From a bacterium (GTDB lineage Bacteria > Patescibacteriota > Patescibacteriia > Patescibacteriales > Patescibacteriaceae): 64,000 bases of DNA. The position numbers and the translations under genes were made by a program. The notes under the pieces are model-generated. The model made no database searches. It was given only the letters and a program-made list of their open reading frames with translations, and was not told the origin of the DNA. Shown here in pieces: positions 1,885 to 45,838 of the stretch (position 1 is its first letter; each line of letters starts with the position of its first letter). The DNA lies in assembly GCA_035438725.1 (NCBI GenBank), contig DAORIW010000002.1, forward strand, positions 2,882-66,881. The letters are read 5' to 3'.

Positions 1885-1888
1885 GCGT

Positions 1889-2212
1889 ATGTCACGGATG
1901 GAACAAGTTAATGCCACCCTTCAGCAGGAGTTGGCTTTTTTAGTAGCTGAACATATTCATCTTAAAGGTGGTTTGGTAACGATTGTGTGGGTTGATTGTA
2001 CGCGCGATCTGCGAGAAGCAACAATCGCTGTTTCAGTTTTACCGGAAAAATTTGCCGGTACCGTTCTCGGACAGTTACGACAAAAATCGGGAATTTTTGC
2101 TTCACAACTGCGTAAACGAATACGCATGAAACGACTACCGTCATTTCGTTGGGAACTAGATACGACGGAAAGTAATGCGGCGGTTCTCGAGGATATTTTT
2201 CAGACTCTGTGA
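1889..2212 (+). CDS. rbfA: Ribosome-binding factor A
   Basis: 107 aa, typical RbfA length and pattern, directly after infB as in the conserved infB-rbfA arrangement. Confidence 0.88.
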   Translation: MSRMEQVNATLQQELAFLVAEHIHLKGGLVTIVWVDCTRDLREATIAVSVLPEKFAGTVLGQLRQKSGIFASQLRKRIRMKRLPSFRWELDTTESNAAVLEDIFQTL

Positions 2213-3177
2213 TTACTTCTTCATATTCTCAACTAATCGACCGTTTAGCCGCGGCGAAAAATATTTTATTAATTACTCATATTTCTCCCGATGGTGATGC
2301 TTTGGGTTCGCTTGGATTTATGAGCGAATGGCTATCAGTACTACATAAAAACTATACTTCGTATACGGCCGGTCCTTTGCCGTCGACTCTTTCTTTTTTA
2401 CCAAATTACCATGAATTTATAACTGATAAAGAAAAAATTAAAGTTGAAGAGTATGATGTAATTATTAGTTTAGATTGTGGAAGTGTCGCTCGTACTAATA
2501 TCGCTACGGAAATAAAAAATCGACGGCCTGATCAGTTTTTTATAGAAATAGATCACCATCCAGCAATTGAAAAAGCCTCAGATTTAGAAATACGTGAACC
2601 GACAGCCGCTGCCACGGCAGAAATTTTATATAAAATTTCACAAACCGCTCACCTTCCGTTAACTCCCAGGATGTCACATTGTTTATTGACCGGTATTTTA
2701 ACAGATACCGGAAATTTTTCTTTTTCCGTTACCAGTGAGCATACGATAGCCGCCGCTGCTCAGATGTTACTGCAAGGGGCAAGTTTACCAAAAATTATTG
2801 ACCGTACCTGGCGGACAAAAAAATTACCTGATTTGAAATTATGGGGATTAGCTTTATCTCGGTTAAAACTTTTGCCTCGATATGGTGTTACGTATACCCA
2901 TATTTCTTCCACCGATCTTAAAGAGACTCAAAGTGATCATGAGGCGCTTGAAGGTTTACCTGAATTTATCTCGGCTTTGCCCGATACGCAGGCCATCATG
3001 GTTTTGTTTGATGATGAAAAGGGGATGATTCATGGAAATTTACGAACAACTCAAAATAACATTGATGTTGGAGCATTAGCGAGGCGACTCGGGGGTGGTG
3101 GCCACCGTAAAGCGGCCGGTTTTAGTCTGACCGGAAAATTAATTAAGAGTAATAACGGTTGGAGGGTTGAAACTTAG
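2209..3177 (+). CDS. DHH/DHHA1 phosphoesterase (NrnA-like oligoribonuclease/pAp phosphatase)
   Basis: Motifs HISPDGDALGS, IEIDHHP, GGGHRKAAG; GTG start overlaps the rbfA stop (GTGA). Confidence 0.85.
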   Translation: MITSSYSQLIDRLAAAKNILLITHISPDGDALGSLGFMSEWLSVLHKNYTSYTAGPLPSTLSFLPNYHEFITDKEKIKVEEYDVIISLDCGSVARTNIATEIKNRRPDQFFIEIDHHPAIEKASDLEIREPTAAATAEILYKISQTAHLPLTPRMSHCLLTGILTDTGNFSFSVTSEHTIAAAAQMLLQGASLPKIIDRTWRTKKLPDLKLWGLALSRLKLLPRYGVTYTHISSTDLKETQSDHEALEGLPEFISALPDTQAIMVLFDDEKGMIHGNLRTTQNNIDVGALARRLGGGGHRKAAGFSLTGKLIKSNNGWRVET

Positions 3178-3206
3178 GCCTAGACAGGCTACAGTTATAG
3201 ATAGTT

Positions 3207-4904
3207 ATGTCTACAATTACTCAAAAACACGAAGAAGAAGGTCCTCTTACGATTACGCCGGGGGCAAAGAAAATATTTCAAGCGATGTATTTAGAACAGC
3301 ACCCGTCTTCAGGTGATGATGAAACTATTGCTCGACTCCAGGTCTCTGACTTGATTTCCAAGATGGCTTTCTATTATGAAAAAATTCGAAATTCAGTTCA
3401 TTATTCCGAAGAACATTTACTGCGCAAAGATTCCATTTTTCGCATCCTTAAACGTCAGTTAGTTATTGAAGGTTCGGTCCGAGTGGTTCGGGCTGAGGAT
3501 AGCCGCACGCTTGCCCAGCATCTGTTAATTGAGTTAATTCGGGCTGGTTATTTACCAAATAATAAGTTACCCGAAACTAAGATTGATGAAGTCGCTGACT
3601 TGATTAATAAATATATTTCTTTACGAACCTTAGCCTTAAGCGAATCGGCCAGTCAATTTAATTTTTTTTCAAACTCTAAAAAAACCGAGGAAAGTTTCGA
3701 GAACCGAGCTGAATTAACTAATTGGTTAATGGGTTTGGCAGCGGCCGAAATTGAAGAACATATTGGGTATAATCATGCAACCCGAACAATCGTTTTAGCA
3801 ATGTACCGGATGCTTGAAAAAAGAATTGAATTGCCACCCACTTTACCATATAGCAAGGATTTACCGATTCAAATTTATGTCGCAATTTATCGAAACCTTT
3901 TAAAATTTGATGATGACATGTTGTCGTTAATTCTTTTCCGATATTATAATGCCGATTGGCAAGGTGTAACCGACGTATCTTTACGAAAAATTGCTATTCA
4001 GTTACCAACCCTAAAACGAATTATTGATGCCCAGTTAACACATCCCTTATGTGCTCAACTTAATCGAATAACTAGAACTTATACCGTTTATTTTAAAATT
4101 TTAGAAGACGTAGTTCGTGAGGACCCCGTTGGTATTTATGAAAGTTTTAATGAGGATCCAAAATTATTTGATCGCAAGATTAAATTAGCTTGTACTAAAC
4201 GATATAACGATGCTCGTAATACCTTATGGCGGGCCGCCTGGCGTAGTATTATTTATATTTTGATCACTAAGTCGGTTTTTGTGGTATTACTTGAAGTACC
4301 AGCCACACAATTTTTTGGTGAAGTGGTAAATTTTATTTCATTAAGCATTAATATTTCTTTCCCAGCTGTTTTAATATTTCTATCTGCTCTTTTTATTACG
4401 TTACCTAAGGAAGATAATACTCAGCGAATTATTGCCGGAATTGAGGAGATCGTGTTTAATGAAAAGAAGCGACCGGCGATTAAATTACGTAAACCCCGCG
4501 GTCGCCACCCTGTCATGAATGTTATTTTTACCTTAATTTATACGGTGACCTTTTTTGTTTCTTTTGGTTTAACAGTGTGGTTTTTAGAGCTGATTAATTT
4601 TAGTTGGGTTAGTGTTATTATCTTTTTATTCTTCTTGGCTTTTGCTAGCTATTTTATAATTAAAATTCGTCGGACAGCCAAAGAATGGGTAGTAGTAGAA
4701 AAACGAGAAAATATTGTTGGCTTTATGATTGATTTTTTCTCTGTTCCAATTGTCGCCACTGGAAAATGGTTATCGGGAAAATTTGCTCGGCTGAATGTTT
4801 TTGCTTTTGTTCTCGACTTTATTATAGAAGCGCCATTCAAAGTTTTTGTTGAAATCGCCGAGCAGTGGACGAGATATGTAAAGGAAAGAAAAGAAGAATT
4901 ATAA
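3207..4904 (+). CDS. Hypothetical protein, soluble N-terminal ~340 aa plus C-terminal multi-TM region
   Basis: Long ORF in operon context; hydrophobic helices in the C-terminal third; no family recognised. Confidence 0.6.
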   Translation: MSTITQKHEEEGPLTITPGAKKIFQAMYLEQHPSSGDDETIARLQVSDLISKMAFYYEKIRNSVHYSEEHLLRKDSIFRILKRQLVIEGSVRVVRAEDSRTLAQHLLIELIRAGYLPNNKLPETKIDEVADLINKYISLRTLALSESASQFNFFSNSKKTEESFENRAELTNWLMGLAAAEIEEHIGYNHATRTIVLAMYRMLEKRIELPPTLPYSKDLPIQIYVAIYRNLLKFDDDMLSLILFRYYNADWQGVTDVSLRKIAIQLPTLKRIIDAQLTHPLCAQLNRITRTYTVYFKILEDVVREDPVGIYESFNEDPKLFDRKIKLACTKRYNDARNTLWRAAWRSIIYILITKSVFVVLLEVPATQFFGEVVNFISLSINISFPAVLIFLSALFITLPKEDNTQRIIAGIEEIVFNEKKRPAIKLRKPRGRHPVMNVIFTLIYTVTFFVSFGLTVWFLELINFSWVSVIIFLFFLAFASYFIIKIRRTAKEWVVVEKRENIVGFMIDFFSVPIVATGKWLSGKFARLNVFAFVLDFIIEAPFKVFVEIAEQWTRYVKERKEEL

Positions 4905-4912
4905 TTTTTTCT

Positions 4913-5428
4913 ATGGCTATTTTTGACGTCATTGTCATCGTTATTCTTGCCGGCTTTGTTTTTTATGGTTTCTTTTTTGGCCTTATTCGGACGGTCGGAA
5001 TGTTAGCTGGTATTTTAGTTGGTGCTTGGTTAGCTTCTAAGTTATACCTAACGGTTTACGGCTGGGTGAGCTCTTGGCTACCGGGAAGCTCTAATATTGG
5101 AAAGCTGGTTTGTTTTATTATTTGTTTTTCAATTATTAGTCACACCGTGAGTTGGTTATTTATTTTATTTGAACAAGCTTTTAAGCTAGCAACAATCGTT
5201 CCTTTTTTGAAAACTATTAATCGATTACTGGGAGCTATCTTTGGTTTTGTTGAGGGTGCGTTAGCGATTGGTTTAGTTCTGTATGTAGCGGGCCGCTATG
5301 TACCAAGTGGAATGTCAGTAGCTAAATGGCTTGATAGTTCAGCGATCGTTTCTTTTTTAATTGGTTTTTCAAAAATATTAGCCCCGTTTTTGCCAGAGAT
5401 TTATAAAAAGATTCAGTCTTTTATTTAA
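4913..5428 (+). CDS. CvpA-family membrane protein
   Basis: MAIFDVIVIVILAGFVFYGFFFGLIR N-terminus typical of CvpA; start moved to ATG 4913, just after the upstream stop at 4902-4904. Confidence 0.72.
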   Translation: MAIFDVIVIVILAGFVFYGFFFGLIRTVGMLAGILVGAWLASKLYLTVYGWVSSWLPGSSNIGKLVCFIICFSIISHTVSWLFILFEQAFKLATIVPFLKTINRLLGAIFGFVEGALAIGLVLYVAGRYVPSGMSVAKWLDSSAIVSFLIGFSKILAPFLPEIYKKIQSFI

Positions 5429-12909: not shown

Positions 12910-14289
<1,380 letters not shown>

Positions 14290-14300
14290 ATAATAAATCA

Positions 14301-14741
14301 ATGTCTAACTCCATGACTCATTTTACTTTTGAAATTGCCTCGCCTGAGCGAGTAGTTTTAAAGGCGAATATGCATCAGGTCTCTGCACCGACGGTCATGG
14401 GAGAAATTACTATTTTGCCTTCCCATATTCCGTTAGTCGCGTTATTAAAACCAGGGGTGATTGAAGCTGTTACGATCGATGGTGTTCGAGAAATTATGGC
14501 TGTTTCCGGGGGGTTGATTGAGGTTATGGCCGGTAAAGTAGTCGTTTTAGCGGATACCGCTGAGAAAGCCTCAGAATTAGATGAAGAACGTATTAAACAA
14601 GCTCAGGAGCGAGCTTTAGGGCTTAAGGAGCAAGCTCGTCATCAGGATGATGTTGAGTTTGCCCGCTTAAGCGCTATGATCGAGAAAGAAGTTGCACGAG
14701 GGATGGCGGTTAGACGCTGGAGAGCAATCAATATAAAATAA
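14301..14741 (+). CDS. atpC: F1 ATP synthase subunit epsilon
   Basis: Beta-sandwich N-terminal pattern (V.AP...GE.TILP.H.PL) plus a C-terminal helical hairpin. Confidence 0.9.
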   Translation: MSNSMTHFTFEIASPERVVLKANMHQVSAPTVMGEITILPSHIPLVALLKPGVIEAVTIDGVREIMAVSGGLIEVMAGKVVVLADTAEKASELDEERIKQAQERALGLKEQARHQDDVEFARLSAMIEKEVARGMAVRRWRAINIK

Positions 14742-14784
14742 CAATTTAAATTATATAGTTCATTAAAAAAACGAAAGGATTTTT

Positions 14785-15870
14785 ATGCAATTTACTAAAT
14801 TGGCAAATCATTCGATTGAAGAAAAAGTAAAAGCTATTTTACAACGGAATGAGGAATATTCTGATAAGTTTCGTAAATCTGCTTTACAGCGTCGACAAAA
14901 CCAAGAACAACATTCTACGGCCATTGCGGCTTTTAAATGTATGGATGGTCGAGTGCATTTACCTATTCTTACTTCTTTACCACTAGGGATTATAAAACCA
15001 TTTCGTAGTTTAGGAGGTAAGTTTAATTTGGCCTGGCCATATCTTGATGCCAAATTTAAAAAGTGGGTTAAGGAGCAAGTAGAAAATAAGAAAGAGTGTT
15101 TAGTTTTAGTTACTTACCATTTTTCGGAAGGAAATGCAGATCATGGTTGTGCTGGATTTGGTTGCGATGTAGAAGCAGCCCGTACATATGTTCAAAAATT
15201 TAAAGAACAGATAGTACGTACGTACCATGACTATCCCAGAAAGATCTTTCCAATTATTGTAGGAATTGAAACTGATTCTCATTCTTTGCTTTTACATACC
15301 GACGACGGACAGATTATTAAAGTAAGTGATTTACAAGATAAGACTAAAGAGGCAATTTATATTAAATTAGTAGATAGCTACAAGAATTTATCCGAACAAG
15401 TTAGTGTTGATTTACTTGAGCTAGTGGTTGGAAATATTAAGCATATGAAAGAAGTAGCTTATGAAAAACGTGAAGCTCAAGATTATGAACACAAAGAATG
15501 GACGGTAGGTTTTGGAACTGGTTTCGATTGGTTACATGCTTATAATACTGCTCTAATAGTGGGCCCTTGGAGTCCTCGAATGGATCAAGATTTATTAACA
15601 GCTTTCTCGATTATTAAAAAGAATATGGATGAAGGGCGCATTAGTGATGATGGCTTTATCGTTCTTCTTTCAACTGAAAAAAATGAGCATGATAATGACG
15701 ATCAGGCTATTGAGAAAGTTAATTTTTTACAACAATTTGCTAAGAATACTTTGATTAATTCATCATATTCTAGCTTATTGGAAAAAGCTTACTTTTTACC
15801 AGTCTCTATAGATGGCTCTGGAAAGTTCACTGATTTAAGTGAGAGATTAAGAGATTTCCCTCAGTTTTAA
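14785..15870 (+). CDS. Hypothetical 361-aa protein co-transcribed with the atp operon
   Basis: AAAGGA Shine-Dalgarno; no terminator between atpC and this gene; strong terminator after it; Cys/His-containing motifs CMDGR and DHGCAGFGC. Confidence 0.6.
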   Translation: MQFTKLANHSIEEKVKAILQRNEEYSDKFRKSALQRRQNQEQHSTAIAAFKCMDGRVHLPILTSLPLGIIKPFRSLGGKFNLAWPYLDAKFKKWVKEQVENKKECLVLVTYHFSEGNADHGCAGFGCDVEAARTYVQKFKEQIVRTYHDYPRKIFPIIVGIETDSHSLLLHTDDGQIIKVSDLQDKTKEAIYIKLVDSYKNLSEQVSVDLLELVVGNIKHMKEVAYEKREAQDYEHKEWTVGFGTGFDWLHAYNTALIVGPWSPRMDQDLLTAFSIIKKNMDEGRISDDGFIVLLSTEKNEHDNDDQAIEKVNFLQQFAKNTLINSSYSSLLEKAYFLPVSIDGSGKFTDLSERLRDFPQF

Positions 15871-15894
15871 ATAGTATTTTATCCAATAGTTGAT

Positions 15895-15926
15895 AAAATT
15901 CGGTCTAATCCACCGAATTTTTTTTA
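15895..15926 (+). terminator. Rho-independent terminator closing the atp transcription unit
   Basis: Stem AAAATTCGGT (15895-15904) / ACCGAATTTT (15912-15921), then a T-run. Confidence 0.7.
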
Positions 15927-15984
15927 TATCTTTAATATGGTATACTACCTGTATAGATTAACTTATTTGCTCGAGCATTCTCTT

Positions 15985-16182
15985 ATGACTACTGTTCCGT
16001 GCCCCCTATGCCATAGCGACGTTATTGTTGATGACGACGCCTATGAAAAAGATTTGGTAACATGTACAAATTGTGAACGTGACCTCGAAATTACGTCGAT
16101 GACGCCTTTAGAGTTAAAAGCGATTGAGGATGAGGTTATAGAAAATGAAGAAGACCCCGAAGTGGAAAAGTTAAAAGAATAA
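15985..16182 (+). CDS. LysW-like zinc-ribbon protein with an acidic C-terminal tail
   Basis: CPLC...x17...CTNC zinc ribbon, LEI.....PLEL pattern, tail EDEVIENEEDPEVEKLKE ending in Glu; start moved to the Met preceding TTVPCPLC. Confidence 0.5.
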   Translation: MTTVPCPLCHSDVIVDDDAYEKDLVTCTNCERDLEITSMTPLELKAIEDEVIENEEDPEVEKLKE

Positions 16183-16187
16183 TATTT

Positions 16188-16216
16188 AAAAAAACGACCA
16201 GTCGGTCGTTTTTTGG
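16188..16216. terminator. Bidirectional terminator between convergent genes
   Basis: AAAAAAACGACC-AGTC-GGTCGTTTTTT: a 6-bp GC-rich stem flanked by an A-run and a T-run. Confidence 0.6.
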
Positions 16217-16227
16217 TTAGGTTTAAT

Positions 16228-17544
16228 TTATTCTTTAACGAGTTTGTTAAATTGTTCCCCGCGATCTTTATAATTTTTAAATAATCCAAAGCTGGCACAA
16301 GCGGGGGACATAAGGATGATATCACCTGAAACAGCTTGTTCCTGAGCCTTTGATAGTGCTTCACTCATACTATTAGCCATTGATATTTCTTTGGGATTAT
16401 ATTTTGCTTTTCGTAAAGAGTTTATAATTTTTGGTAAGGCTCTACCTTTAAAGAGGATGAGGTGTTTTACTTGTTTGGAAATTATTTTTGCCAGAGTAGT
16501 AAAGTCTGAACCCTTGTCAGCACCTCCGGCAATTAATAGTATTGGCTGTTTAAATGCCTTAAGAGCAGTGATGGTGGCGGCAGGAGTTGTGGCAAAACTA
16601 TCGTTATAATAAGTGATTCCATTTTTTTCAATAATTTTTTCAAGTCGGAAAGGAAGGCCTTTAAATTTTTTTACACCTGTTGTGATAGTTTTTATGGAAA
16701 GACCAATAGCACGTGCAACTGCAACCGCTGCGGCGATATTTTCCTTATTATGATCGCCAGGTAAATTAGAAAATAGAGTAGAAGTAGTAAAAAATGTTTT
16801 TTTGGTTTTTACTTTTTTTATATCAGTCTTATTTTTTAATACCTGGTTAATAATCGCTAGATCATTTTTTTTCTGATACCGTATTAAATTATATTTGGCG
16901 TTCCAGTACGATGATAGAGTGGGATGATAGTTGGGAACAGTTTTGTCAGAAGGTGCCAGATGCTCGGGAGAAAAATTTGTTAGGACGCTGATATGAGGGC
17001 TGGTTGTCATATCTTCAAGTTGAAAACTCGAGAGCTCAAGAATAACCCAATCAGTCTTTTTAATTTTCAATATAAAACTAAATGGCGCCACGCCAATATT
17101 TCCACCAATCCAGACACGCTTGCCTCCCGTTTTAAGAATGGAATAAATGAGACTAGCTGTTGTTCCTTTTCCCTTAGTACCGGTTACTCCGATAGTATTT
17201 TTCGTTGGACAAAAATCAAGAAATAATTGCATGGGTGAAATAATCTGGGTGTGATTTTTTTTCAAGTCACGACGAAGTTTGGGAGAAAAAAATGATCCAG
17301 GCGTACGAATAATGAGACTGAACTTTTTTAAATTATTAAAGGTTGGCTTGGAGATATTCCAGGTAATATGTTTCCAGTTTTTTAATTTCGGGTATTGTTG
17401 CTCCATATCCCCGCGAGACTGAAGGGCAAAAATAGTCAGGGGATATATTTCTTTTGTATGTATTAAAAATTCGATCAAGGAATAATTTTCTGGACCTAAA
17501 CCGACTATGGCAATGGTTTCTTTTTTTAGATCAGCTAATTTCAT
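16228..17544 (-). CDS. murD: UDP-N-acetylmuramoylalanine--D-glutamate ligase
   Basis: GVTGTKGKGTT P-loop; C-terminal GDIILMSPACASFGLFKNYKDRGEQF signature. Confidence 0.9.
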   Translation of the reverse strand: MKLADLKKETIAIVGLGPENYSLIEFLIHTKEIYPLTIFALQSRGDMEQQYPKLKNWKHITWNISKPTFNNLKKFSLIIRTPGSFFSPKLRRDLKKNHTQIISPMQLFLDFCPTKNTIGVTGTKGKGTTASLIYSILKTGGKRVWIGGNIGVAPFSFILKIKKTDWVILELSSFQLEDMTTSPHISVLTNFSPEHLAPSDKTVPNYHPTLSSYWNAKYNLIRYQKKNDLAIINQVLKNKTDIKKVKTKKTFFTTSTLFSNLPGDHNKENIAAAVAVARAIGLSIKTITTGVKKFKGLPFRLEKIIEKNGITYYNDSFATTPAATITALKAFKQPILLIAGGADKGSDFTTLAKIISKQVKHLILFKGRALPKIINSLRKAKYNPKEISMANSMSEALSKAQEQAVSGDIILMSPACASFGLFKNYKDRGEQFNKLVKE

Positions 17545-39166: not shown

Positions 39167-39919
39167 TTAGATCAACTCCCAAAACTTGTCATACCATGAA
39201 CGGTGCATAGCGCTAATTTCCTTACTCTCAATAATAACGCCCATAAAATTTTCTTTATAAGAGAGAAAAGCAACTTTATTTGCAAATATTTTCATATCAC
39301 CGCTAAAGGCATGAGCTGAATCTTTTATTATTTTAACCTCTCGTAGTTCTTCCTTTGCTCGTGCCTTCCATTTTTTTGCTTCAATAGAATCAGTCGTAAT
39401 AGTACGATTGATTATTTTTTTCTTTACACGTTCCTTAACATAGTAATCCCCAATTTCTTCGGGAAAAACTCTTTGGAAGTCAGTCATCCCTGTATAACTT
39501 AAAATAGTATCACCCGGAGCTACACTGTTTACTACTTCGCGATAAATATCCTTTATTCCACCCACTCCCTCGTAGAGAGTTATTTTTGGTTTATAAGGAA
39601 AGACATTGTGAAGTGATTGAAGGTGGGGGATAACGCTATCAATCATTTTGGCCCTCTCTTCTAAAGAGACTTTTAAGTTACGTGGATCTTCAATAAAGTA
39701 AGTTTTTTTACCCGATCTTTTGACTAAGCTTACATGGCCTTCGGACTGGAGTTCAGGAAGAATACTATAAACAGTAGTTCGTTTTAATTGGGCCATAGCG
39801 GCAATCGAAGCCACGGATGCTTCACCAAGTTCTAACAAGGTTAAATAGACCTTGGTTTTTTTATCAGAAAAACCGGTTAGTGATTGAATACTCTTTTCAA
39901 GATTGTTTAATTTTTTCAT
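39167..39919 (-). CDS. TrmB-family transcriptional regulator
   Basis: N-terminal wHTH KVYLTLLELGEASVASIAAMAQLKRTTVYSILPELQSEGHV; start moved to MKKLNNL, downstream of the promoter. Confidence 0.8.
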   Translation of the reverse strand: MKKLNNLEKSIQSLTGFSDKKTKVYLTLLELGEASVASIAAMAQLKRTTVYSILPELQSEGHVSLVKRSGKKTYFIEDPRNLKVSLEERAKMIDSVIPHLQSLHNVFPYKPKITLYEGVGGIKDIYREVVNSVAPGDTILSYTGMTDFQRVFPEEIGDYYVKERVKKKIINRTITTDSIEAKKWKARAKEELREVKIIKDSAHAFSGDMKIFANKVAFLSYKENFMGVIIESKEISAMHRSWYDKFWELI

Positions 39920-39944
39920 ATTGTCGAATTTTTTAGACACATTA

Positions 39945-39973
39945 AATATAGCAAAAAAATTGAAAATTGTCAA
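39945..39973 (-). promoter_or_regulatory. Promoter TTGACA-17-TATATT for the TrmB-family gene
   Basis: Plus-strand TGTCAA 39968-39973 and AATATA 39945-39950. Confidence 0.55.
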
Positions 39974-40030
39974 TAAAATATCAAATTATTAAGGTATATA
40001 AAAAATTATTATATATATTACAGACTAAAA

Positions 40031-40049
40031 TAGTAGAGTTGATATACTA
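40031..40049. promoter_or_regulatory. Inverted repeat TAGTA-N9-TACTA just upstream of the AlaRS-like start (candidate operator)
   Basis: TAGTA 40031-40035 and TACTA 40045-40049, 10 nt before ATG 40059. Confidence 0.3.
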
Positions 40050-40058
40050 GGTCTAAGT

Positions 40059-41186
40059 ATGAAAACAACTGAAATACGACAAATTATAAAAAATTTACCA
40101 AGAATACCCAATATCGCTTATTTGCATGAAGCGCCGGTTATTCATTCAGGTTTTCCATCATGCTTTAACCTTTCTTTTGGTGAGTATGAGTTATTGAGAG
40201 AATTTAATGGCCAATACTTAGTGTATGACCATGATTGTATCTATTCAAAGATACAGCCTTGCATTAGACACCAAGACTGGGAAACAATTGTTAAAGATGA
40301 AAAGAATCGCTGGCGTTATCTTTCTTTATTTAATATGGCTGATGTTTCAGGATTGATTATAAAACAAAATAATAAAGAACAGGAGGAATTGGGCAAGCAC
40401 GCTATTTTCTCGTTTGTACATTTTATTGTTTCACTTGGTCTAAAAAAAGAAAATTTACGAATCTCTTACTTTGCTGGTGGAAAGGTAAGGGATGTTACTA
40501 AAGGAAAGTATGAGTTAGAAACATACATTCCATCAGATCCCTTAAAAGATTATTGGAAGTCTTTAGGTATTAGTGAAAATCAGTTTATTTCAGATGCAAC
40601 TCGCGATACCTTTTTAGCTTTACAAGTATTTGGTTTACCTACTCCTTGGGGGTACCGCAATGAGATAAATTATTTGCATGACGGAAAATTACTTGATATT
40701 GGAACGGTTGAGTATATGAAATTTGAACCTGTGTTTGTAGATAAAAAGATTATAGCGCTTAAACCTTTTCGTCATTCTTTAGGAATTTCCGCAGTCGGTG
40801 TCGAGCGATTATTAATGATAATTAATAACCATGCAAACGTGTATGATATTGATATTATTGAACCGCTCATTCATGAAGTATTAGAAAGGTGTGAAAAAAA
40901 AGATAAGATTCAAGCAATGATTATAGTTCAGGCTATTCGAGCTCTGCACCAAATTATTTCTGACGGGGGAATATACTCTCGTTTAAACACTCGACGTAAA
41001 GAGTATGTACGTATGTTTTGTAGGGGTATGGTAGCAGCGGCCAAAAAAATAAACTATAATCTTTCCTCAATAAATATAAAAAAAATCTTGCAATTGAATG
41101 CAAAATTGCAATCATTCTATCCTCAGTTATTAAATAATATTGAAATAACGGGGCAAGAGATTCAAGCAAGAGTTAATCAATTATAA
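40059..41186 (+). CDS. Stand-alone, diverged alanyl-tRNA synthetase catalytic-domain (class IIc) paralog, 375 aa
   Basis: Collinear with the AlaRS N-terminus: TEIRQ; [11 protein letters not shown] vs [24 protein letters not shown] vs [24 protein letters not shown] vs CGPCTEIFYDHG; VEYMKF vs [28 protein letters not shown] vs [33 protein letters not shown] vs IRSCAFLIADG. No editing or C-Ala domains. Confidence 0.75.
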   Translation: [375 protein letters not shown]

Positions 41187-41207
41187 AAAAAATATGTAAA
41201 AAAATAA

Positions 41208-41279
41208 AGGGACGTAGCTCAATAGTAGAGCGTCTGCCGTATATGCAGATAGTTGAAGGTGCAAATCCTTCCGTCCCGA
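41208..41279 (+). tRNA. Atypical tRNA-like gene 1 (UAU at the anticodon position)
   Basis: Cloverleaf (A)GGGACG-TA-GCTC-AATAGTA-GAGC-G-TCTGC-CGTATAT-GCAGA-TAGTT-GAAGG-TGCAAAT-CCTTC-CGTCCC(G)-A. G at position 33, no G18G19, G at position 55, A1 opposite G72. Confidence 0.6.
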
Positions 41280-41290
41280 CACATAAATAA

Positions 41291-41375
41291 AGGGAGGTGG
41301 CGAAATTGGTAAACGCACTTACGTAAAAGTAAGCGACTGAAATGTCTTGGGGGTTCAAGCCCCCCCCCCTCCCGA
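41291..41375 (+). tRNA. Atypical type-II tRNA-like gene 2 (Leu-like, UAA/AAA region)
   Basis: (A)GGGAGG-TG-GCGAAATTGGTAAACGC-A-CTTAC-GTAAAA-GTAAG, long variable arm, GGGGG-TTCAAGC-CCCCC, two extra C, CCTCCC(G)-A. 6-nt anticodon loop and a C9 run. Confidence 0.5.
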
Positions 41376-41398
41376 CTAGCTTATGTAAAAATTTTAAT

Positions 41399-41470
41399 AG
41401 GGGCGTAGCTCAATAGTAGAGCGTCTGTTTTACCTACAGAAGACTGGAAGTGCAATTCTTCCCGTCCCGA
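41399..41470 (+). tRNA. Atypical tRNA-like gene 3 (UAC at the anticodon position)
   Basis: (A)GGGGCG-TA-GCTC-AATAGTA-GAGC-G-TCTGT-TTTACCT-ACAGA-AGACT-GGAAG-TGCAATT-CTTCC-CGTCCC(G)-A. C at position 37, no G18G19, G at position 55. Confidence 0.6.
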
Positions 41471-41527
41471 CAAGTAAGTATTTATACTATAAAATACTCC
41501 TTTCGAAGTGTTCTATAATTACTAAAT

Positions 41528-43750
41528 TTATTTCCCATACTCACAGCTTTTACTACTACAGCGTGGTTCCTCTTTTCCTTCAACTAACGGTTGTCCGCAA
41601 TCAGGGCACATGTCGCCCGTTGGTTTGCTATTGAAAGCAGTCTTGCAATCAGGGTAACGATCACAGGCATAGAAGATTCCACGGCGACTTCTTTTTTGAA
41701 CAATATTACCTTCTTTACAGACTGGACATGTAATCGTTGGTCCTTCGCTCACATTTAGATTTTTAATATTCTTGCATTTTGGATAATTACTACAACCTAA
41801 GAATGGACCGAAGCGCCCAGTTTTTATCGCCATCGGACTACCACATTTTTCACAGACATCGTCTTTATGTTTTTCGGTTAAGGCTTTCATTTTCTCATCC
41901 ATCTCGGGTGAGTTCTTGTCCATGGATTTAATATTTTTACATTCCGGGAAATTACTGCAACCTAAAAATGATCCAAAGCGCCCCGTTTTAATTACCATCG
42001 GACTTCCGCATTTCTCACATTTTTCATCGGATAGTTTTTCTGGCATAATATCGTCCTTTTTTACTTCTTCATACTTGGCGGTCAGGTTGGTATGAAAAGG
42101 ACCATAGAATTCACTGAGAACTGGTTTCCATTCTTTCTCGCCTTCGGCAATTTCATCCAAATCATTTTCTAGTTTTGCGGTAAATTCTAAGTCAACAATA
42201 TTTGGAAAATGGGCGACTAATAAATCAATAACAATCCCGGCGATGTCAGTTGGTTTCAAACGTTTGTTTTCATCGCGGCCCACATAATTTCTCGCCTCAA
42301 TTGTACTAATTGTCGGGGCGTAGGTTGAAGGTCGACCAATACCATATTTTTCTAATTCTTTAACGAGAGTCGCATCGCTGTAGCGAGCTGGTGGTTTGGT
42401 AAAATGTTGTTCCGGTTTTAATTCTTTAAGGTCAACAATATCTTTTTCTTTTACTTCAGGTAAAAGCATTTCCTGACTTTTTTCCGGGTAGATTTTTAAA
42501 TATCCTTGAAAGAAAATTGTTTGACCGGTTGCCCGAAACTCACCGCGGCCAGCGGTAACGTCAATGGCTACTTGATCTAATTCGGCGGGCGGCATTTGGC
42601 TGGCTACCGCGCGCTGCCAAATTAATCGGTATAATTTTAATTGATTAGGTGCCAAAAAATCTTCTAAACTTTCTGGAGTACGACTTACCTCGGAAGGGCG
42701 AATTGCTTCATGAGCTTCTTGCGCGCCTTTTGATTTAGTCTTAAATCGTCGGGGTTCTTCTAAAGCATATTCTTTACCGAGGGTTGAGATTAAATGTTCT
42801 CGAGACTCATCAAGAAATTTTTGCGATAAATTTAAGGAGTCGGTACGCATGTAGGTAATCAAACCAATACTACCTTCCGGACCTAATTCCACACCTTCAT
42901 AGAGTTGTTGAGCGAGCATCATTGTTTGTTTGGCTGAAAAACCAAGCATCCGGTTAGCAGTTTGTTGTAAGCTCGAGGTAGTGAACGGGGAAGGGGCGGT
43001 TTTTTTAGCGCGTTTTTTTTCAACGGCGGCGATAGTATATTTTTCTTTGCTTAATTCAGTTACTAAGGCTGTGGCCGCTTCCTCGCTTTTAATTTCTAAT
43101 TTATCAAGTGTCTTACCATTGATTTTATTTAATTCGGCGGTAAATTCTTGTTTATTTGATGTTATGAGATCAGCGGCTAATGTCCAATATTCATCAGTTT
43201 TAAAAGCCTCAATTTCTCGTTCACGCTCAACTATTAAACGCACCGCTACTGATTGAACACGACCAGCCGATAAACCACGAGCAACTTTTTTCCATAAGAA
43301 AGGAGAAAGTTCATAACCAACCAAGCGATCTAGAATACGTCGTGCTTGTTGAGCATCTACTAATTTATTATTAATTGTTCGAGGATGAGCCAAAGCTTCT
43401 TCAATTGCTTCCTTGGTAATTTCATGAAAAACAATCCGCTGGGTTTTGTCAGTCGGTAATTTTAATGCTTCGGCTAAATGCCAGGCAATCGCTTCTCCTT
43501 CGCGGTCTTCGTCGGAGGCGAGAATTACTTCGGTGGCTTTATCGGCTAATTTTTTTAATTTAGTAACGGTTTTTTTAGCTTTAGTTGGAATAATATATTG
43601 CGGCGCAAAGTCATGCTCAACGTTAATGCCTAATTTTGATTTTGGCAAATCACGAATATGGCCGAATGATGATTCGACATTAAAACCTTTGCCTAAAAAT
43701 TTGGCGATGGTTTTTGCTTTGGTTGGTGATTCGACAATAACTAATTTCAT
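41528..43750 (-). CDS. topA: DNA topoisomerase I with C-terminal zinc ribbons
   Basis: MKLVIVESPTKAKTI Toprim start, active-site region ITYMRTDS, repeated C-x2-C...C-x5-C fingers. Confidence 0.95.
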   Translation of the reverse strand: MKLVIVESPTKAKTIAKFLGKGFNVESSFGHIRDLPKSKLGINVEHDFAPQYIIPTKAKKTVTKLKKLADKATEVILASDEDREGEAIAWHLAEALKLPTDKTQRIVFHEITKEAIEEALAHPRTINNKLVDAQQARRILDRLVGYELSPFLWKKVARGLSAGRVQSVAVRLIVEREREIEAFKTDEYWTLAADLITSNKQEFTAELNKINGKTLDKLEIKSEEAATALVTELSKEKYTIAAVEKKRAKKTAPSPFTTSSLQQTANRMLGFSAKQTMMLAQQLYEGVELGPEGSIGLITYMRTDSLNLSQKFLDESREHLISTLGKEYALEEPRRFKTKSKGAQEAHEAIRPSEVSRTPESLEDFLAPNQLKLYRLIWQRAVASQMPPAELDQVAIDVTAGRGEFRATGQTIFFQGYLKIYPEKSQEMLLPEVKEKDIVDLKELKPEQHFTKPPARYSDATLVKELEKYGIGRPSTYAPTISTIEARNYVGRDENKRLKPTDIAGIVIDLLVAHFPNIVDLEFTAKLENDLDEIAEGEKEWKPVLSEFYGPFHTNLTAKYEEVKKDDIMPEKLSDEKCEKCGSPMVIKTGRFGSFLGCSNFPECKNIKSMDKNSPEMDEKMKALTEKHKDDVCEKCGSPMAIKTGRFGPFLGCSNYPKCKNIKNLNVSEGPTITCPVCKEGNIVQKRSRRGIFYACDRYPDCKTAFNSKPTGDMCPDCGQPLVEGKEEPRCSSKSCEYGK

Positions 43751-43780
43751 GAAATTGCGAAATAAAAATTATAAATAAAG

Positions 43781-44869
43781 TTAGAAAAGACGAATATAAC
43801 TCATGTTTCCGGTGTTTTTTACGAGTCCTTTTAATTCCATAATAGTCAGTCTACTGTTTATCAGCCCCATGTCAAGTTTAGTATTCTGTCTAATTTCGTT
43901 GATATGCCTTGGTTCATGACTAAGAAATTTTAAAATCAAGGTTTCTTCTGGAGAAAGAGTAATGGTTTCTTTTACAGGATTTTTTTCTTGTAAGTTTTCA
44001 AGTTTTAGAATTTTTAGAATATCAGATGTTTCGGTAATTAAGGCCGCACCTTGCTTTATTAAATTATTAGTTCCTCGTGATAGGGGAGAATAAATATTTC
44101 CTGGTACTGCCATTACTTCCCGATTCTCTTGGAGGGCATAGTGGGCGCTAATTAATGCCCCGGATTTTTCCGAAGCTTCTATTAATAGTGTAGCTTGAGC
44201 GAGTCCAGCAATAATTCGATTGCGTTGCGGAAAGTTACCTTTGAACGGTGGAGTGTCTGGAGGAAATTCAGAAATTAAACACCCACTCTGGCTAATTTTT
44301 TCTGCTAATAGTTTATTACAACTTGGATAAATATTATTAAGACCTGAACCGAGAACAGCGATCGTCTTTCCTTTTTCTTCCAGTGTTACATTATGAACTA
44401 ACTCGTCAATTCCTAAGGCTAAACCACTTATAATAATGAAATTGATTTTAGCTAGATCACGTACTAATCGCTCAACTATTTGTTTTCCGTAAGCGGATGG
44501 TCTTCGTGAGCCTACGATTGAAATCGTTGGTTGACTAAAAGAATCAGTTGTTAATATCCCTTGATAGTATAGTATCGGTGGTGGAAGATAAATTTGCTTT
44601 AAGAGAGCTGGATAGTTTGATTCATCGACACTTAGTGTTTGTATATTTTCTTCGGTTAAACTTTTTTTAAAAATTTCTATTTTGAAATTTTTTCGAAAGT
44701 AAATTAATTCGCTAATGGCCGCGTTATCCAAGCCAGCTTTTTGTAAGGCAGAAACAGGAGCTTCCCAAGCTTTTTGCCAACTAAAAAAATAGGCCCGCAA
44801 TCGCTTGAGACGAGAGGGGCCTATTTTATTGCACTGGCTTATCGCCAGCAGAAAATCTTTTTCTTCCAT
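43781..44869 (-). CDS. dprA: DNA-processing protein DprA (Smf)
   Basis: Rossmann core IVGSRRPSAYG...SGLALGIDE...AVLGSGL...GAL; C-terminal wHTH. Confidence 0.9.
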   Translation of the reverse strand: MEEKDFLLAISQCNKIGPSRLKRLRAYFFSWQKAWEAPVSALQKAGLDNAAISELIYFRKNFKIEIFKKSLTEENIQTLSVDESNYPALLKQIYLPPPILYYQGILTTDSFSQPTISIVGSRRPSAYGKQIVERLVRDLAKINFIIISGLALGIDELVHNVTLEEKGKTIAVLGSGLNNIYPSCNKLLAEKISQSGCLISEFPPDTPPFKGNFPQRNRIIAGLAQATLLIEASEKSGALISAHYALQENREVMAVPGNIYSPLSRGTNNLIKQGAALITETSDILKILKLENLQEKNPVKETITLSPEETLILKFLSHEPRHINEIRQNTKLDMGLINSRLTIMELKGLVKNTGNMSYIRLF

Positions 44870-44877
44870 GTTTACAT

Positions 44878-45657
44878 TTATTCAAATTCTAAGGTCAGAG
44901 GTAGATGATCGGAAATTTCATCTTGAAGAACTTCAAAATGTTTAACAGTAATATCTGGAGAAATTAAAATATAATCTGCGAATTTATCAGGTTTTGAGTA
45001 ATAGCTACTTCTCGTAGAAGTGAAGGGCGAAGATTTTACAAGATTGATCATGTTCTGTTCTAAAATTTTAATGCTTTGACAATCAGGTTGTAAATTAAAA
45101 TCACCACATAATATTTTTTTACCATTTTTAGTTTTCAGGAAATTATGTAATATAGTAGATTGCGTTAATCGTTCAGCCGTATCTTTTTTGTGTGTATCTT
45201 GTTGCCAGAGTCCATGAAGATTAAGAATGGAAAGCATTTCTGTCTCTTTAATTTTAAGATCAATCCACTGACAACTTCCTGTTATTTTCCCCCCTAAGAA
45301 TACTTTATTAGGTATCGTATTACTATAACATCGAAAGCCTCCGTGATTATTTACTAATAAGTCTTTTTTGATAAAAATAGCTTGTCCAGGAAGAGTTCCT
45401 TTTTTTAAAGGTTCATCCTGAAAATGTATAGCTTCTTTTGGAGCATGGTATTTAAAAGCTATAAAATCCGGAAGACATTTTTCAATTTCTAAAAAAATGT
45501 TTAGTCGAGCCTTATGAACCGGAGTAACCTCAGGTTCTAGACCAAATATCATTTCCTGAAAACAAAAAATATCAGTGCCGGGAGCCTGAAGTTTAATAAA
45601 ATCAATTAAGGGTTCAAAAATTTTTCCACCCCAGATATTTAAGGTGATAAGTTTCAT
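44878..45657 (-). CDS. Endonuclease/exonuclease/phosphatase (EEP) family protein
   Basis: LNIWGG..., FCFQEM, GDFN, SDHLPL motifs; start moved to ATG 45657 because the tracked N-terminus overlaps tRNA-Ile. Confidence 0.75.
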   Translation of the reverse strand: MKLITLNIWGGKIFEPLIDFIKLQAPGTDIFCFQEMIFGLEPEVTPVHKARLNIFLEIEKCLPDFIAFKYHAPKEAIHFQDEPLKKGTLPGQAIFIKKDLLVNNHGGFRCYSNTIPNKVFLGGKITGSCQWIDLKIKETEMLSILNLHGLWQQDTHKKDTAERLTQSTILHNFLKTKNGKKILCGDFNLQPDCQSIKILEQNMINLVKSSPFTSTRSSYYSKPDKFADYILISPDITVKHFEVLQDEISDHLPLTLEFE

Positions 45658-45670
45658 GAGTTTCAATATG

Positions 45671-45744
45671 TACGCCTGCTTGGACTCGAACCAAGGACCC
45701 TCGAGGTATAAGCTCGATGCTCTAACCAACTGAGCTACAGGCGC
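45671..45744 (-). tRNA. tRNA-Ile (UAU)
   Basis: GCGCCTG-TA-GCTC-AGTTGGTTA-GAGC-A-TCGAG-CTTATAC-CTCGA-GGGTC-CTTGG-TTCGAGT-CCAAG-CAGGCGT-A; canonical elbow; G1.U72. Confidence 0.85.
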
Positions 45745-45764
45745 TTACTTTACAACTTCGGTAG

Positions 45765-45838
45765 TGATCACTAGTGGACTCGAACCACCGACCTCCACGA
45801 TGTCAACGTGGCGCTCTAACCAACTGAGCTAAGCGATC
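45765..45838 (-). tRNA. tRNA-Val (GAC)
   Basis: GATCGCT-TA-GCTC-AGTTGGTTA-GAGC-G-CCACG-TTGACAT-CGTGG-AGGTC-GGTGG-TTCGAGT-CCACT-AGTGATC-A. Confidence 0.9.

Follow-up and report, generated by a model that had tools for sequence, protein, structure and literature searches.

Organization of the Locus

The stretch of DNA analyzed here, referred to as the window, comprises 64,000 nucleotides of contig DAORIW010000002.1 (assembly GCA_035438725.1) from a bacterium of the family Patescibacteriaceae. Between positions 39167 and 41471 it carries a gene for a stand-alone paralog of the catalytic fragment of alanyl-tRNA synthetase (AlaRS), called the enzyme below, together with a divergently oriented gene for a TrmB-type regulator and, directly downstream of the enzyme gene, three tandem genes for tRNA-shaped RNAs (RNAs 1–3). 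A previous sequence-only reading of this DNA had described a candidate new module in which a minus-strand TrmB regulator with its own TTGACA-17-TATATT promoter is divergent from a 375-residue AlaRS-like open reading frame (ORF) that is followed, after a gap of 21 nucleotides, by three tRNA-shaped genes without an intervening promoter or terminator. All of these elements were recovered in the present analysis and are arranged as follows, in window coordinates.

39167..39919, minus strand: TrmBL2-like winged helix-turn-helix regulator, 250 residues from an ATG at 39919, with the winged helix at the N terminus and a non-catalytic PLD-like domain at the C terminus
39920..40058, no strand: A+T-rich divergent region between the regulator and enzyme genes, a candidate control region only, with a weak plus-strand promoter-like site at 39960–39989 and several imperfect inverted repeats
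39945..39973, minus strand: sigma-70-like promoter of the regulator gene (TTGACA-17-TATATT, -10 element extended by TG); 11/12 in a consensus scan, consensus match only
40059..41186, plus strand: stand-alone AlaRS catalytic-fragment paralog, 375 residues, with a class II core and a helical tRNA-recognition subdomain
41208..41280, plus strand: RNA 1, Ile-like; anticodon UAU by ARAGORN, 58 bits in Rfam, 87 bits with a covariance model built from RNAs of this kind, cloverleaf as minimum free energy fold
41291..41376, plus strand: RNA 2, a Leu-like type II molecule whose variable arm is long; "tRNA-???" at 41291–41373 in ARAGORN, 29.5 bits in Rfam, cloverleaf fold
41399..41471, plus strand: RNA 3, Val-like; anticodon UAC by ARAGORN, 55.8 bits in Rfam, 89.6 bits with the same covariance model, cloverleaf fold

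The regulator ORF as listed (39167–39973, minus strand) has a TTG-extended 5' end. Because the promoter falls within this extension, translation probably begins at the ATG at 39919; in L054, a 98% relative with genome identity to the window of 97.4–98.3%, the regulator gene is also called as 250 residues with the same ATG start. No operator was identified in a scan of 39920–40058 for promoters and inverted repeats. The enzyme ORF ends with a TAA at 41184–41186, leaving a spacer of exactly 21 nucleotides before RNA 1, and a consensus scan of the plus strand from the ORF through RNA 3 revealed no promoter-like or terminator-like site. The four other tRNAs in the window (Ala-UGC, Ile-UAU, Val-GAC, and Glu-UUC) have Rfam tRNA scores of 64–74 bits; the tRNA-Ile(UAU), at 45670–45744, is canonical, as had been noted previously.

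Fold and Active Site of the Enzyme

The enzyme resembles AlaRS weakly in sequence and strongly in fold. Its match to Pfam tRNA-synt_2c has an E-value of 6e-8 and is confined to residues 233–368, and with the models for alaS it scores 35.7 bits (TIGR00344, cutoff 457) and 25.2 bits (NF002436, cutoff 529), below the cutoff in both cases. The AlphaFold2 model calculated with 89 homologs has a predicted local distance difference test score (pLDDT) of 97.2 and a predicted template modeling score of 0.93, and its best matches in the PDB, found with Foldseek, are all AlaRS catalytic fragments: the human (5V59 and 4XEM), Escherichia coli (3HXU), and A. aeolicus (1RIQ) structures. These superimpose over the whole 375 residues with template modeling scores of 0.73–0.77 at 18–20% sequence identity. 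The polypeptide ends after the helical subdomain, and the Mid2, editing, and C-Ala domains are absent.

R70, R250, D213, T216, E218, W197, G198, R200, and E202 are invariant among the 89 homologs, and basic residues of the helical domain are invariant or nearly so. R70, in the sequence QPCIR, aligns with the arginine of AlaRS motif 2 (QxCxR), and R250, in the sequence G-V-E-R, is that of motif 3 (G(L/V)ER). The alanine-binding pocket was compared through a HMMER alignment to 1RIQ and 3HTZ and not through superposed coordinates. In this alignment Asp235 of E. coli AlaRS, the anchor of the alpha-amino group, corresponds to I243, in a column that contains I, V, L, A, T, or G and never an acidic residue, whereas Asn212 is replaced by T216, Val214 by E218, and Trp170 by L186; judged by Asp235, Asn212, Val214, and Gly237 (E. 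coli numbering), the pocket is not that of AlaRS. Since the residues that hold alanine are replaced and those of the ATP site are retained, the adenylate chemistry looks intact from the alignment, and the substrate pocket differs. The proposal of the sequence-only reading that the enzyme is an AlaRS paralog, truncated and remodeled in its active site, is supported.

A profile search of 1.84 billion representative sequences yielded 453 family members with E ≤ 1e-3 and 224 with E ≤ 1e-10. They are nearly all stand-alone proteins of 350–400 residues and come from Patescibacteria and from archaea of the DPANN group (Pace-, Woese-, and Nanoarchaeota). The source annotations consulted give them the name "hypothetical protein" or "alanyl-tRNA synthetase"; canonical AlaRS proteins were not drawn into the search. 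The sole strong match to tRNA-synt_2c among the long proteins checked, P0247 (910 residues), represents a different AlaRS-like lineage in which two halves resembling the AlaRS catalytic fragment are joined in tandem, with an E-value of 3.6e-124 for the second half. A phage or defense origin was considered and rejected, because no relatives of the enzyme were found in 2.9 million viral contigs and no PADLOC defense-system model matched it. The matches of the regulator to Csa3/CasR are weak and span only the winged helix-turn-helix.

Relation to the Housekeeping AlaRS

Because the enzyme has an AlaRS fold and its family is present in DPANN archaea, it might be the catalytic half of the organism's own AlaRS; a split AlaRS occurs in Nanoarchaeum. 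This explanation is extremely improbable, and we have rejected a role as housekeeping, split, or sole AlaRS. In addition to the TIGR00344 score of 35.7 bits against a cutoff of 457 and the lack of an acidic residue at the Asp235 position, the family comprises only about 220 clusters in the 1.84 billion representatives, and a 4.6-kb contig (L091) encodes a true alaS beside a family member, which refutes the explanation for that locus. L091 contains a TrmB-like gene (126–866, minus strand), a 375-residue family member (1001–2128, plus strand), and, convergent to the latter, a short alaS gene for 591 residues (2372–4147, minus strand) that scores 764 bits with NF002436 and 596 bits with TIGR00344, above the cutoffs of 529 and 457. 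In the window, the tRNA-Ala has the G3·U70 pair, which calls for a canonical AlaRS, whereas G3-C70 is present in 17 of 18 linked RNAs. The expectation that the enzyme is not the only AlaRS was borne out in L091; for the window organism, the 10-kb flanks past both window ends contain no alaS and no further tRNA, the canonical tRNA-Val(UAC) and tRNA-Leu(UAA) included. From these comparisons, the enzyme is probably not the housekeeping AlaRS of the window organism.

Structures of the Three RNAs

RNAs 1–3 all exceed the Rfam threshold for tRNA (RF00005, 29 bits), RNA 2 marginally, but they deviate from the four textbook tRNAs of the window, as the lower scores indicate (58, 29.5, and 55.8 bits versus 64–74 bits). 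No other Rfam family accounts for them: the match to YrlA (20 bits, cutoff 69) reflects shared tRNA-like elements. None of the three has the full set of elongator features, namely a seven-nucleotide anticodon loop, U33, a purine at position 37, a paired 1:72, G18-G19, and U54-U55-C56. RNA 1 has the anticodon loop CGUAUAU (anticodon UAU, G33), the D-loop AAUAGUA (A18, G19), and the T-loop UGCAAAU (G55), and RNA 3 has the anticodon loop UUUACCU (anticodon UAC, C37), A18 and G19, the T-loop UGCAAUU, and a G5·U68 wobble pair. In RNA 2, a five-base-pair "anticodon" stem carries the six-nucleotide loop GUAAAA. Of the anticodons UAU, UAA-like, and UAC proposed previously, the first and last agree with ARAGORN, whereas the UAA-like triplet lies in this six-nucleotide loop, to which no anticodon is assigned. 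All three RNAs have an A1·G72 mismatch, followed by A73-C74. A73-C74 is likewise the terminus of the canonical window tRNAs, in which CCA is not encoded, so this 3' context is normal for the genome.

With a seven-nucleotide D-loop, the most economical register would retain the G19-C56 pair and set A18 against G55, which would amount to a joint change of both partners of the usual G18-Psi55 interaction. The acceptor stems of the Ile-, Val-, and Leu-like RNAs of the window are nearly alike (AGGGACG, AGGGAGG, and AGGGGCG), whereas those of the canonical tRNAs there all differ from one another. Near-identity of acceptor stems across three "identities" is as expected if one reader of the acceptor arm serves all three.

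Comparison with L054 shows that the RNAs vary more than their canonical neighbors, with about seven changes in 230 nucleotides of tRNA-like sequence versus none in the 223 nucleotides of three shared canonical tRNAs. RNA 1 of L054 has U33 in place of the G33 of the window, and U31. RNA 2 of L054 has U1·G72 and a run of eight C residues, giving a regular acceptor and T arm; the run in the window (41359–41368) has 10, two of which are surplus, and the difference reflects either true variation in length or a sequencing error in the homopolymer.

Recurrence of the Linkage

The enzyme gene was compared in 53 loci from species-representative genomes, 80 from metagenomes, and L054, and these were scanned for RNAs with ARAGORN and with the covariance model, which was built from eleven of the RNAs. 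Linkage was counted in the clade with at least 40% identity to the window protein, for which 36 loci have usable flanks. A same-strand tRNA or tRNA-like gene lies directly against the enzyme gene in 26 of the 36. In 20 of these 26 it is aberrant, having a UGC T-loop, AG instead of GG in the D-loop, a pyrimidine at position 37, or no anticodon loop; the other six (L002, L067–69, L074, and L076) have canonical-looking or otherwise atypical tRNA-Ile(UAU) or tRNA-Val(UAC). The synteny sought in relatives on the basis of the sequence-only reading therefore exists, with aberrant tRNA-like genes following the AlaRS-like gene in about 20 independent Patescibacteria loci. Only gene-adjacent copies have the UGC T-loop: 20 of 42 distinct adjacent tRNAs and tRNA-likes carry GUGC(A/G)A together with the D-loop AG, as compared with none of 33 non-adjacent ones in the same loci.

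The type I RNAs read UAU (Ile-like) or UAC, in one case CAC (Val-like). The type II, Leu-like RNAs never have an anticodon loop, and an "anticodon" arm that consists of a stem of 5–11 base pairs and a loop of 3–6 nucleotides was seen in at least eight distinct RNAs, as follows.

Window and L054, type II: 5 base pairs, 6-nucleotide loop
L012, type II: 6 base pairs, loop AAAAA
L062, type II: 6 base pairs, GCAA tetraloop
L011 and L064, type II: 10–11 base pairs, 3-nucleotide loop
L006, L008, and L009, type I: stems of 8–10 base pairs, loops of 4–6 nucleotides

A different variant was observed just upstream of the enzyme gene in L032 (3847–3944, the same as L081 2377–2474), where a tRNA-like gene has a hairpin of about 25 nucleotides inserted in the D-loop and a nine-nucleotide "anticodon" loop on a six-base-pair stem. 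In L002 (3705–3990), a canonical tRNA-Ile(UAU) lies upstream of the enzyme gene, and the 3'-half repeat GAGTCCAAGCATGCGCA follows about 230 nucleotides later; this repeat resembles the trace that an insertion into the tRNA gene would leave.

Selection on the RNAs and Fitness for Decoding

Among 18 distinct type I RNAs, standard pairing holds in 98.4% of the cells in the alignment of stems, and compensatory double changes are seen at 12 of the 21 pairs, with covariation in all five pairs of the anticodon stem. In none of 500 shuffles was the paired fraction, the number of compensatory pairs, or the covariation score as high as in the real alignment, and the signal was lost when the partners were slid against each other. 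This covariation indicates that the RNAs are under selection and are not decaying copies; they are functional. The pairs G2-C71, G3-C70, G4-C69, and G7-C66 are nearly invariant, and A73 and C74 are invariant. The G5·U68 wobble is present in 14 of the 18. As a private identity mark comparable with G3·U70 it is suggestive but not specific, since it is also found in the canonical tRNA-Val(GAC) of the window (45764–45838, minus strand) and in canonical-looking tRNA-Ile(UAU) and tRNA-Val(UAC) at L002, L067–69, and L076; it may be a feature of Ile and Val tRNAs in this lineage.

Judged by their loops and their 1:72 positions, the RNAs are poor or impossible decoders. A pyrimidine at position 37 was found in four of seven distinct Val-like RNAs, and the Ile-like RNA duplicates the canonical tRNA-Ile(UAU) encoded in the same genome. 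These observations bear on an alternative in which the lineage uses the Ile- and Val-like genes as its tRNA-Ile(UAU) and tRNA-Val(UAC), unusual but working, the anticodon-less copies are decaying pseudogenes, and the adjacency has no function: the enzyme gene would simply be carried in a tRNA operon, and its product would have an unrelated role in metabolism or sensing under the TrmB-like regulator. UAC and UAU are standard bacterial anticodons, G5·U68 is shared with the window tRNA-Val(GAC), canonical-looking tRNAs of these two identities abut the gene at L002, L067–69, and L076, and normal tRNAs of other identities are frequent neighbors: tRNA-Asp, -Asn, -Arg, and -Lys flank the gene at various loci, and a tRNA-Ser (GGA or CGA) lies directly upstream of it in the following five.

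L001, 3913–4003
L010, 3760–3847
L017, 3889–3976
L029, 3796–3884
L132, 2296–2384

We nevertheless regard functionless adjacency as very doubtful. Across genomes, the RNAs that lack an anticodon loop retain flawless acceptor, D, and T arms, and their long stems are maintained by compensatory changes; pyrimidine-37, G33, and A1·G72 are unfavorable for decoding; a canonical tRNA-Ile(UAU) is already present in the same genome; and the UGC T-loop is restricted to the copies next to the enzyme gene.

The Regulator and Its Coupling to the Enzyme

The regulator matches the Pfam TrmB family (PF01978) with 41 bits (cutoff 25.6). Its AlphaFold2 model has a pLDDT of 92 and is most similar in the PDB to TrmBL2 (5bpd, E = 4e-15), which in archaea is both a chromatin protein and a regulator; TrmB is also among the fold matches, and the C-terminal domain of the window regulator resembles proteins with the PLD fold, although the HKD motif is absent. 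It scores 18.6 and 14.6 bits with the TrmB and TrmBL1 equivalog models, below their cutoffs of 650 and 500. The architecture is that of the short TrmBL2 type, without the sugar-binding subdomain.

A search with a hidden Markov model of the regulator was made in the 107 loci that have enough upstream sequence. A full-length homolog that is divergent from the enzyme gene and starts within 700 nucleotides of it is present in 37 of the 107, which comprise both bacterial and archaeal loci. The two proteins are also joined covalently in some family members. P0122 (522 residues), P0136 (533 residues, encoded in L053), and the protein of L107 have a C-terminal extension of about 145 residues for which a Pfam search of the longer members gave no match and which proved to be homologous to the C-terminal domain of the window regulator (39167–39919), with a BLASTP E-value of 2e-11 and 24–27% identity across the whole domain. 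The fusions are listed here, as identified by BLASTP.

L053, 3989–5617 (protein P0136): enzyme fused to the regulator C-terminal domain
L107, 2459–4042: enzyme fused to the regulator C-terminal domain
Protein P0122: enzyme fused to the regulator C-terminal domain

P0165 (527 residues) is possibly a third fusion. From the existence of natural fusions, the C-terminal domain of the regulator, which belongs to a family abundant in the candidate phyla radiation (CPR), is predicted to bind the enzyme or the same ligand; on this sequence evidence, it may do either. The conserved core of the system is the regulator together with the enzyme, and the tRNA-like genes are an add-on confined to one bacterial clade. 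The module envisaged in the sequence-only reading is thus recurrent, with a conserved divergent TrmB-type partner, but its tRNA-like genes are not part of the core cassette.

Overlap of the Enzyme ORF and the RNAs

The enzyme ORF of at least nine loci reads into the tRNA-like gene and reaches its stop codon only there. The stop is a UAG in the D-loop in seven, where the proteins end in ...RGVAQ, and elsewhere in the RNA in two, as follows.

L001, 5138–5155: D-loop UAG
L003, 1481–1498: D-loop UAG
L004, 5150–5167: D-loop UAG
L005, about 4687–4707: D-loop UAG
L009, 2756–2776: D-loop UAG
L010, 5156–5173: D-loop UAG
L034, 5150–5170: D-loop UAG
L008, 5145–5179: UAG in the long "anticodon" arm
L051, 5173–5182: UAG formed by U8-A9-G10

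The possibility that A18 is a by-product of the in-frame UAG was rejected, since A18 also occurs where no ORF extends into the RNA. Where the stop lies within the RNA, cleavage by RNase P at the 5' end of the RNA would leave a non-stop mRNA. At the upstream end of the gene in L001, a gap of 1–3 nucleotides separates the tRNA-Ser from the ATG, leaving no room for a Shine-Dalgarno sequence. The order tRNA-ORF-tRNA at this locus resembles mitochondrial punctuation.

These overlaps suggest an alternative in which the tRNA-like elements act in cis, as 3' elements of the mRNA or as sensors. They could be sites of punctuation by RNases P and Z, an autoregulatory site for the enzyme in the manner of thrS-type feedback, or a signal of charge state that operates with the TrmBL2-like regulator. 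In addition to the internal stops and the L001 start codon, the lack of a promoter or terminator between the window ORF and its RNAs, the conservation of the regulator, and the fusion of its C-terminal domain to the enzyme in some members are consistent with this explanation. However, spacers of 9–90 nucleotides and up to three tandem RNAs, as in the window and several other loci, exceed the needs of punctuation; the conserved A73-C74, acceptor stem, and elbow suggest a processed, CCA-tailed RNA acting in trans; and the conservation of the anticodon is left unexplained. A role purely in cis or in regulation is therefore quite unlikely in our judgment.

Proposed Mechanism and the Alternative of a Transferase

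The interpretation that we favor, while holding it tentatively, is that the enzyme loads an acyl group other than alanine onto private, non-decoding carriers for non-ribosomal use. An AlaRS-like enzyme that keeps the class II ATP and adenylate chemistry and a helical subdomain that binds the acceptor arm, and in which the alanine pocket is replaced, would adenylate a non-alanine substrate, possibly one that is not a standard alpha-amino acid, and would then esterify the adenylated group to the 3' ends of the tRNA-like RNAs encoded downstream. Recognition would depend on features common to the RNAs, namely an acceptor stem of the form N1-G2G3G4-R5-N6-G7, the base A73, and an elbow that is unusual in having A18 and G55. 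The RNAs would be derived from tRNA-Ile, tRNA-Val, and tRNA-Leu and would be kept out of translation by the UGC T-loop, pyrimidine-37, G33, the 1:72 mismatch, or the missing anticodon loop, so as to serve as dedicated acyl carriers that donate to a non-ribosomal acceptor, and the divergent TrmBL2-like regulator would control the cassette. Charging and co-transcription of the RNAs, their exclusion from the ribosome, and the nature of the acyl group and its acceptor are what we infer from the gene arrangement and the sequences. In its most complete form, to which we attach somewhat less credence, the proposal is of a self-contained, translation-independent aminoacyl-RNA system: a class II synthetase descended from AlaRS, with a changed substrate, may charge its own anticodon-less carriers. 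In that form, recognition through the acceptor arm and the rebuilt A18/G55 elbow, under a partner regulator with which the enzyme shares a domain, is equally conjectural.

Several observations weigh against this interpretation. U34 and A35 are invariant and position 36 is always U or C in the 18 type I RNAs even though the stem around them covaries; since a 375-residue enzyme that engages the acceptor end cannot read the anticodon, another reader, either IleRS and ValRS or the ribosome, seems to matter. Neighbor clustering revealed no transferase or acceptor gene linked to the locus, and Fem, MprF, and L/F-transferase genes were not found in about 820 kb of loci analyzed in this way. The RNAs adjacent to the gene in the close loci L002, L067–69, and L076 are canonical-looking, as described above. 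Finally, distant CPR members and all DPANN members of the family have no adjacent tRNA-like gene, although ordinary tRNAs are often near, which implies that the core function of the family requires none next door. Rfam searches downstream of the archaeal enzyme genes gave no match.

A separate observation concerns the Pacearchaeota-type loci, in which a common hairpin, CTTCTTTCTTAAAAAGAAAGAAG, directly follows the AlaRS-like gene (L015 at about 5206–5240, L021, L024, L026, L046, and L016). This hairpin has no match in Rfam and could be a terminator or an RNA partner.

The decay of the anticodon in these RNAs follows the identity rules of the normal synthetases. IleRS and ValRS need A35 together with U36 or C36, whereas the anticodon is of no consequence to bacterial LeuRS; U34-A35-Y36 is preserved in the Ile- and Val-like RNAs, and exactly the Leu-like RNAs have all lost the anticodon loop. 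This pattern motivates an alternative in which IleRS, ValRS, and LeuRS charge the tRNA-like RNAs and the AlaRS-like protein is a transferase that moves the branched-chain aminoacyl group to a nucleophile bound in the former adenylate site. Against such charging, the Ile-like RNAs have G4:C69, as compared with C4:G69 in the canonical tRNA-Ile(UAU) of the window, and C4:G69 is a determinant for E. coli IleRS. A precedent exists in AcmF of ascamycin biosynthesis, an AlaRS-like, aminoacyl-tRNA-dependent transferase that contains the aminoacylation and tRNA-recognition domains only and uses Ala-tRNAAla as donor; the alanine-activation site of AcmF is altered and the protein is reported to have lost most ATP-binding residues (PMC12945691). 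Similarly, the non-proteogenic tRNAGly species of Staphylococcus are charged by the normal GlyRS (PMC7826273). The invariance of R70, R250, D213, and E202 in the present family fits an adenylating enzyme better than a transferase, and no acceptor pathway is linked to the locus. We consider an AcmF-like reaction unlikely, though less so than an action in cis.

Comparison with Known Systems

The enzyme shares with the AlaRS catalytic fragments (E. coli AlaRS441, A. aeolicus 1RIQ, and human 4XEM and 5V59) the fold, the arginines of motifs 2 and 3, and the helical subdomain. It differs from them in its 18–20% identity, in the replaced alanine pocket, in the lack of Mid2, editing, and C-Ala domains, and in that its partner RNAs do not have G3·U70. 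AlaRS-type enzymes are readers of the acceptor arm, and their best known anticodon-less substrate is the tRNA-like domain of tmRNA, which has G3·U70; genuine AlaRS charges this domain by reading the acceptor arm alone, and SmpB accompanies tmRNA into the ribosome. The present system is similar in pairing an anticodon-less tRNA-like acceptor with an AlaRS-type enzyme, but the tRNA-like RNAs have neither an mRNA-like domain nor G3·U70.

PylRS and tRNAPyl, like other dedicated pairs of a synthetase and a tRNA, offer a parallel, since the gene for a class II synthetase there adjoins that for its own aberrant tRNA; in tRNAPyl the D-loop is small and lacks GG, the T-loop is atypical, and the anticodon stem is long. 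In contrast, tRNAPyl decodes UAG on the ribosome, whereas the tRNA-like RNAs have a sense-type anticodon or none and features hostile to decoding, and the enzyme is unrelated to PylRS.

AcmF and the enzyme are alike in being truncated to the aminoacylation and tRNA-recognition domains and in having an altered alanine site, and AcmF acts outside translation on the acceptor end of a tRNA, as the enzyme would. They are set apart here by the published description of AcmF and not by comparison of sequences: the ATP-site arginines and acidic residues are invariant in the enzyme family, and AcmF belongs to a nucleoside-antibiotic cluster of Streptomyces and uses ordinary Ala-tRNAAla, whereas the window locus has no biosynthetic cluster and has dedicated tRNA-like RNAs and a regulator. 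The tRNAGly species of staphylococci that are donors for the pentaglycine bridge of peptidoglycan are the only non-proteogenic tRNAs to have been well studied, and they bind EF-Tu poorly. Their hallmark is the T-loop, in which TGC or TGT replaces TTC and there is no pseudouridine (PMC7826273). RNAs 1 and 3 of the window likewise have a UGC T-loop and an altered G18/G19 region and are extra isoacceptor copies that exist beside proteogenic ones. The staphylococcal RNAs, however, have a working anticodon, are substrates of the normal GlyRS and are used by FemXAB, with no linked synthetase paralog, whereas an anticodon loop is missing from several RNAs of the window family, and Fem-type genes are not linked to them.

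The regulator has the winged helix-turn-helix (PF01978), coiled coil, and PLD-like C-terminal domain of TrmBL2/TrmB proteins. Unlike TrmB, TrmBL1, and TrmBHalo, it does not reach the scores of their equivalog models and has no sugar-binding subdomain; in addition, it is bacterial (CPR) as well as archaeal, and its C-terminal domain also occurs fused to the AlaRS-like enzyme.

Searches of the full-text literature uncovered no description of the enzyme family, the RNAs, or the gene arrangement, in keeping with the view, put forward in the sequence-only reading, that the arrangement is undescribed. Synthetase paralogs, non-proteogenic tRNAs, and TrmB regulators are known kinds; what appears to be new is their combination, in which a dedicated synthetase paralog is linked genetically both to tRNA-like RNAs of its own, some of them without an anticodon, and to a regulator with which it has a domain in common.

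Neighboring Genes

Two features elsewhere in the window were observed in the comparison with L054. A listed ORF of 283 residues with a TTG start (44878–45729, minus strand) overlaps the canonical tRNA-Ile(UAU); in L054, where it belongs to the Exo_endo_phos family, the gene is called with 259 residues, indicating that the start in the window is over-extended. Between topA and dprA, L054 contains about 2.4 kb (13786–16258) that is not present in the window (43750–43790) and that encodes ORFs of 79 and 444 residues, both without a Pfam match.

Implications

If the enzyme charges private carriers, the locus would define a new RNA-dependent route of non-ribosomal acyl transfer and the first dedicated pair of a synthetase and a tRNA-like RNA that serves no codon. 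Such a natural orthogonal pair, based on recognition of the acceptor arm, would be of interest for synthetic biology. The RNAs illustrate how a tRNA can be retired from decoding, and the T-loop change known from the staphylococcal cell-wall tRNAs has arisen here independently. In CPR genomes these RNAs are presumably annotated as tRNA-Val, tRNA-Ile, or undetermined tRNAs, as in the ARAGORN calls obtained here, and such labels for the RNAs and the enzyme distort estimates of decoding capacity and of aminoacyl-tRNA synthetase content. Through the fusion of regulator and enzyme sequences, a regulator family that is very common in the CPR is tied to an enzyme in a concrete way that can be tested. 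The system would operate in ultra-small symbiotic bacteria, with its enzyme-regulator core held in common with DPANN archaea, and the proposed route would thus be part of the minimal metabolism and symbiotic biology of Patescibacteria and DPANN archaea, both of which are poorly understood.

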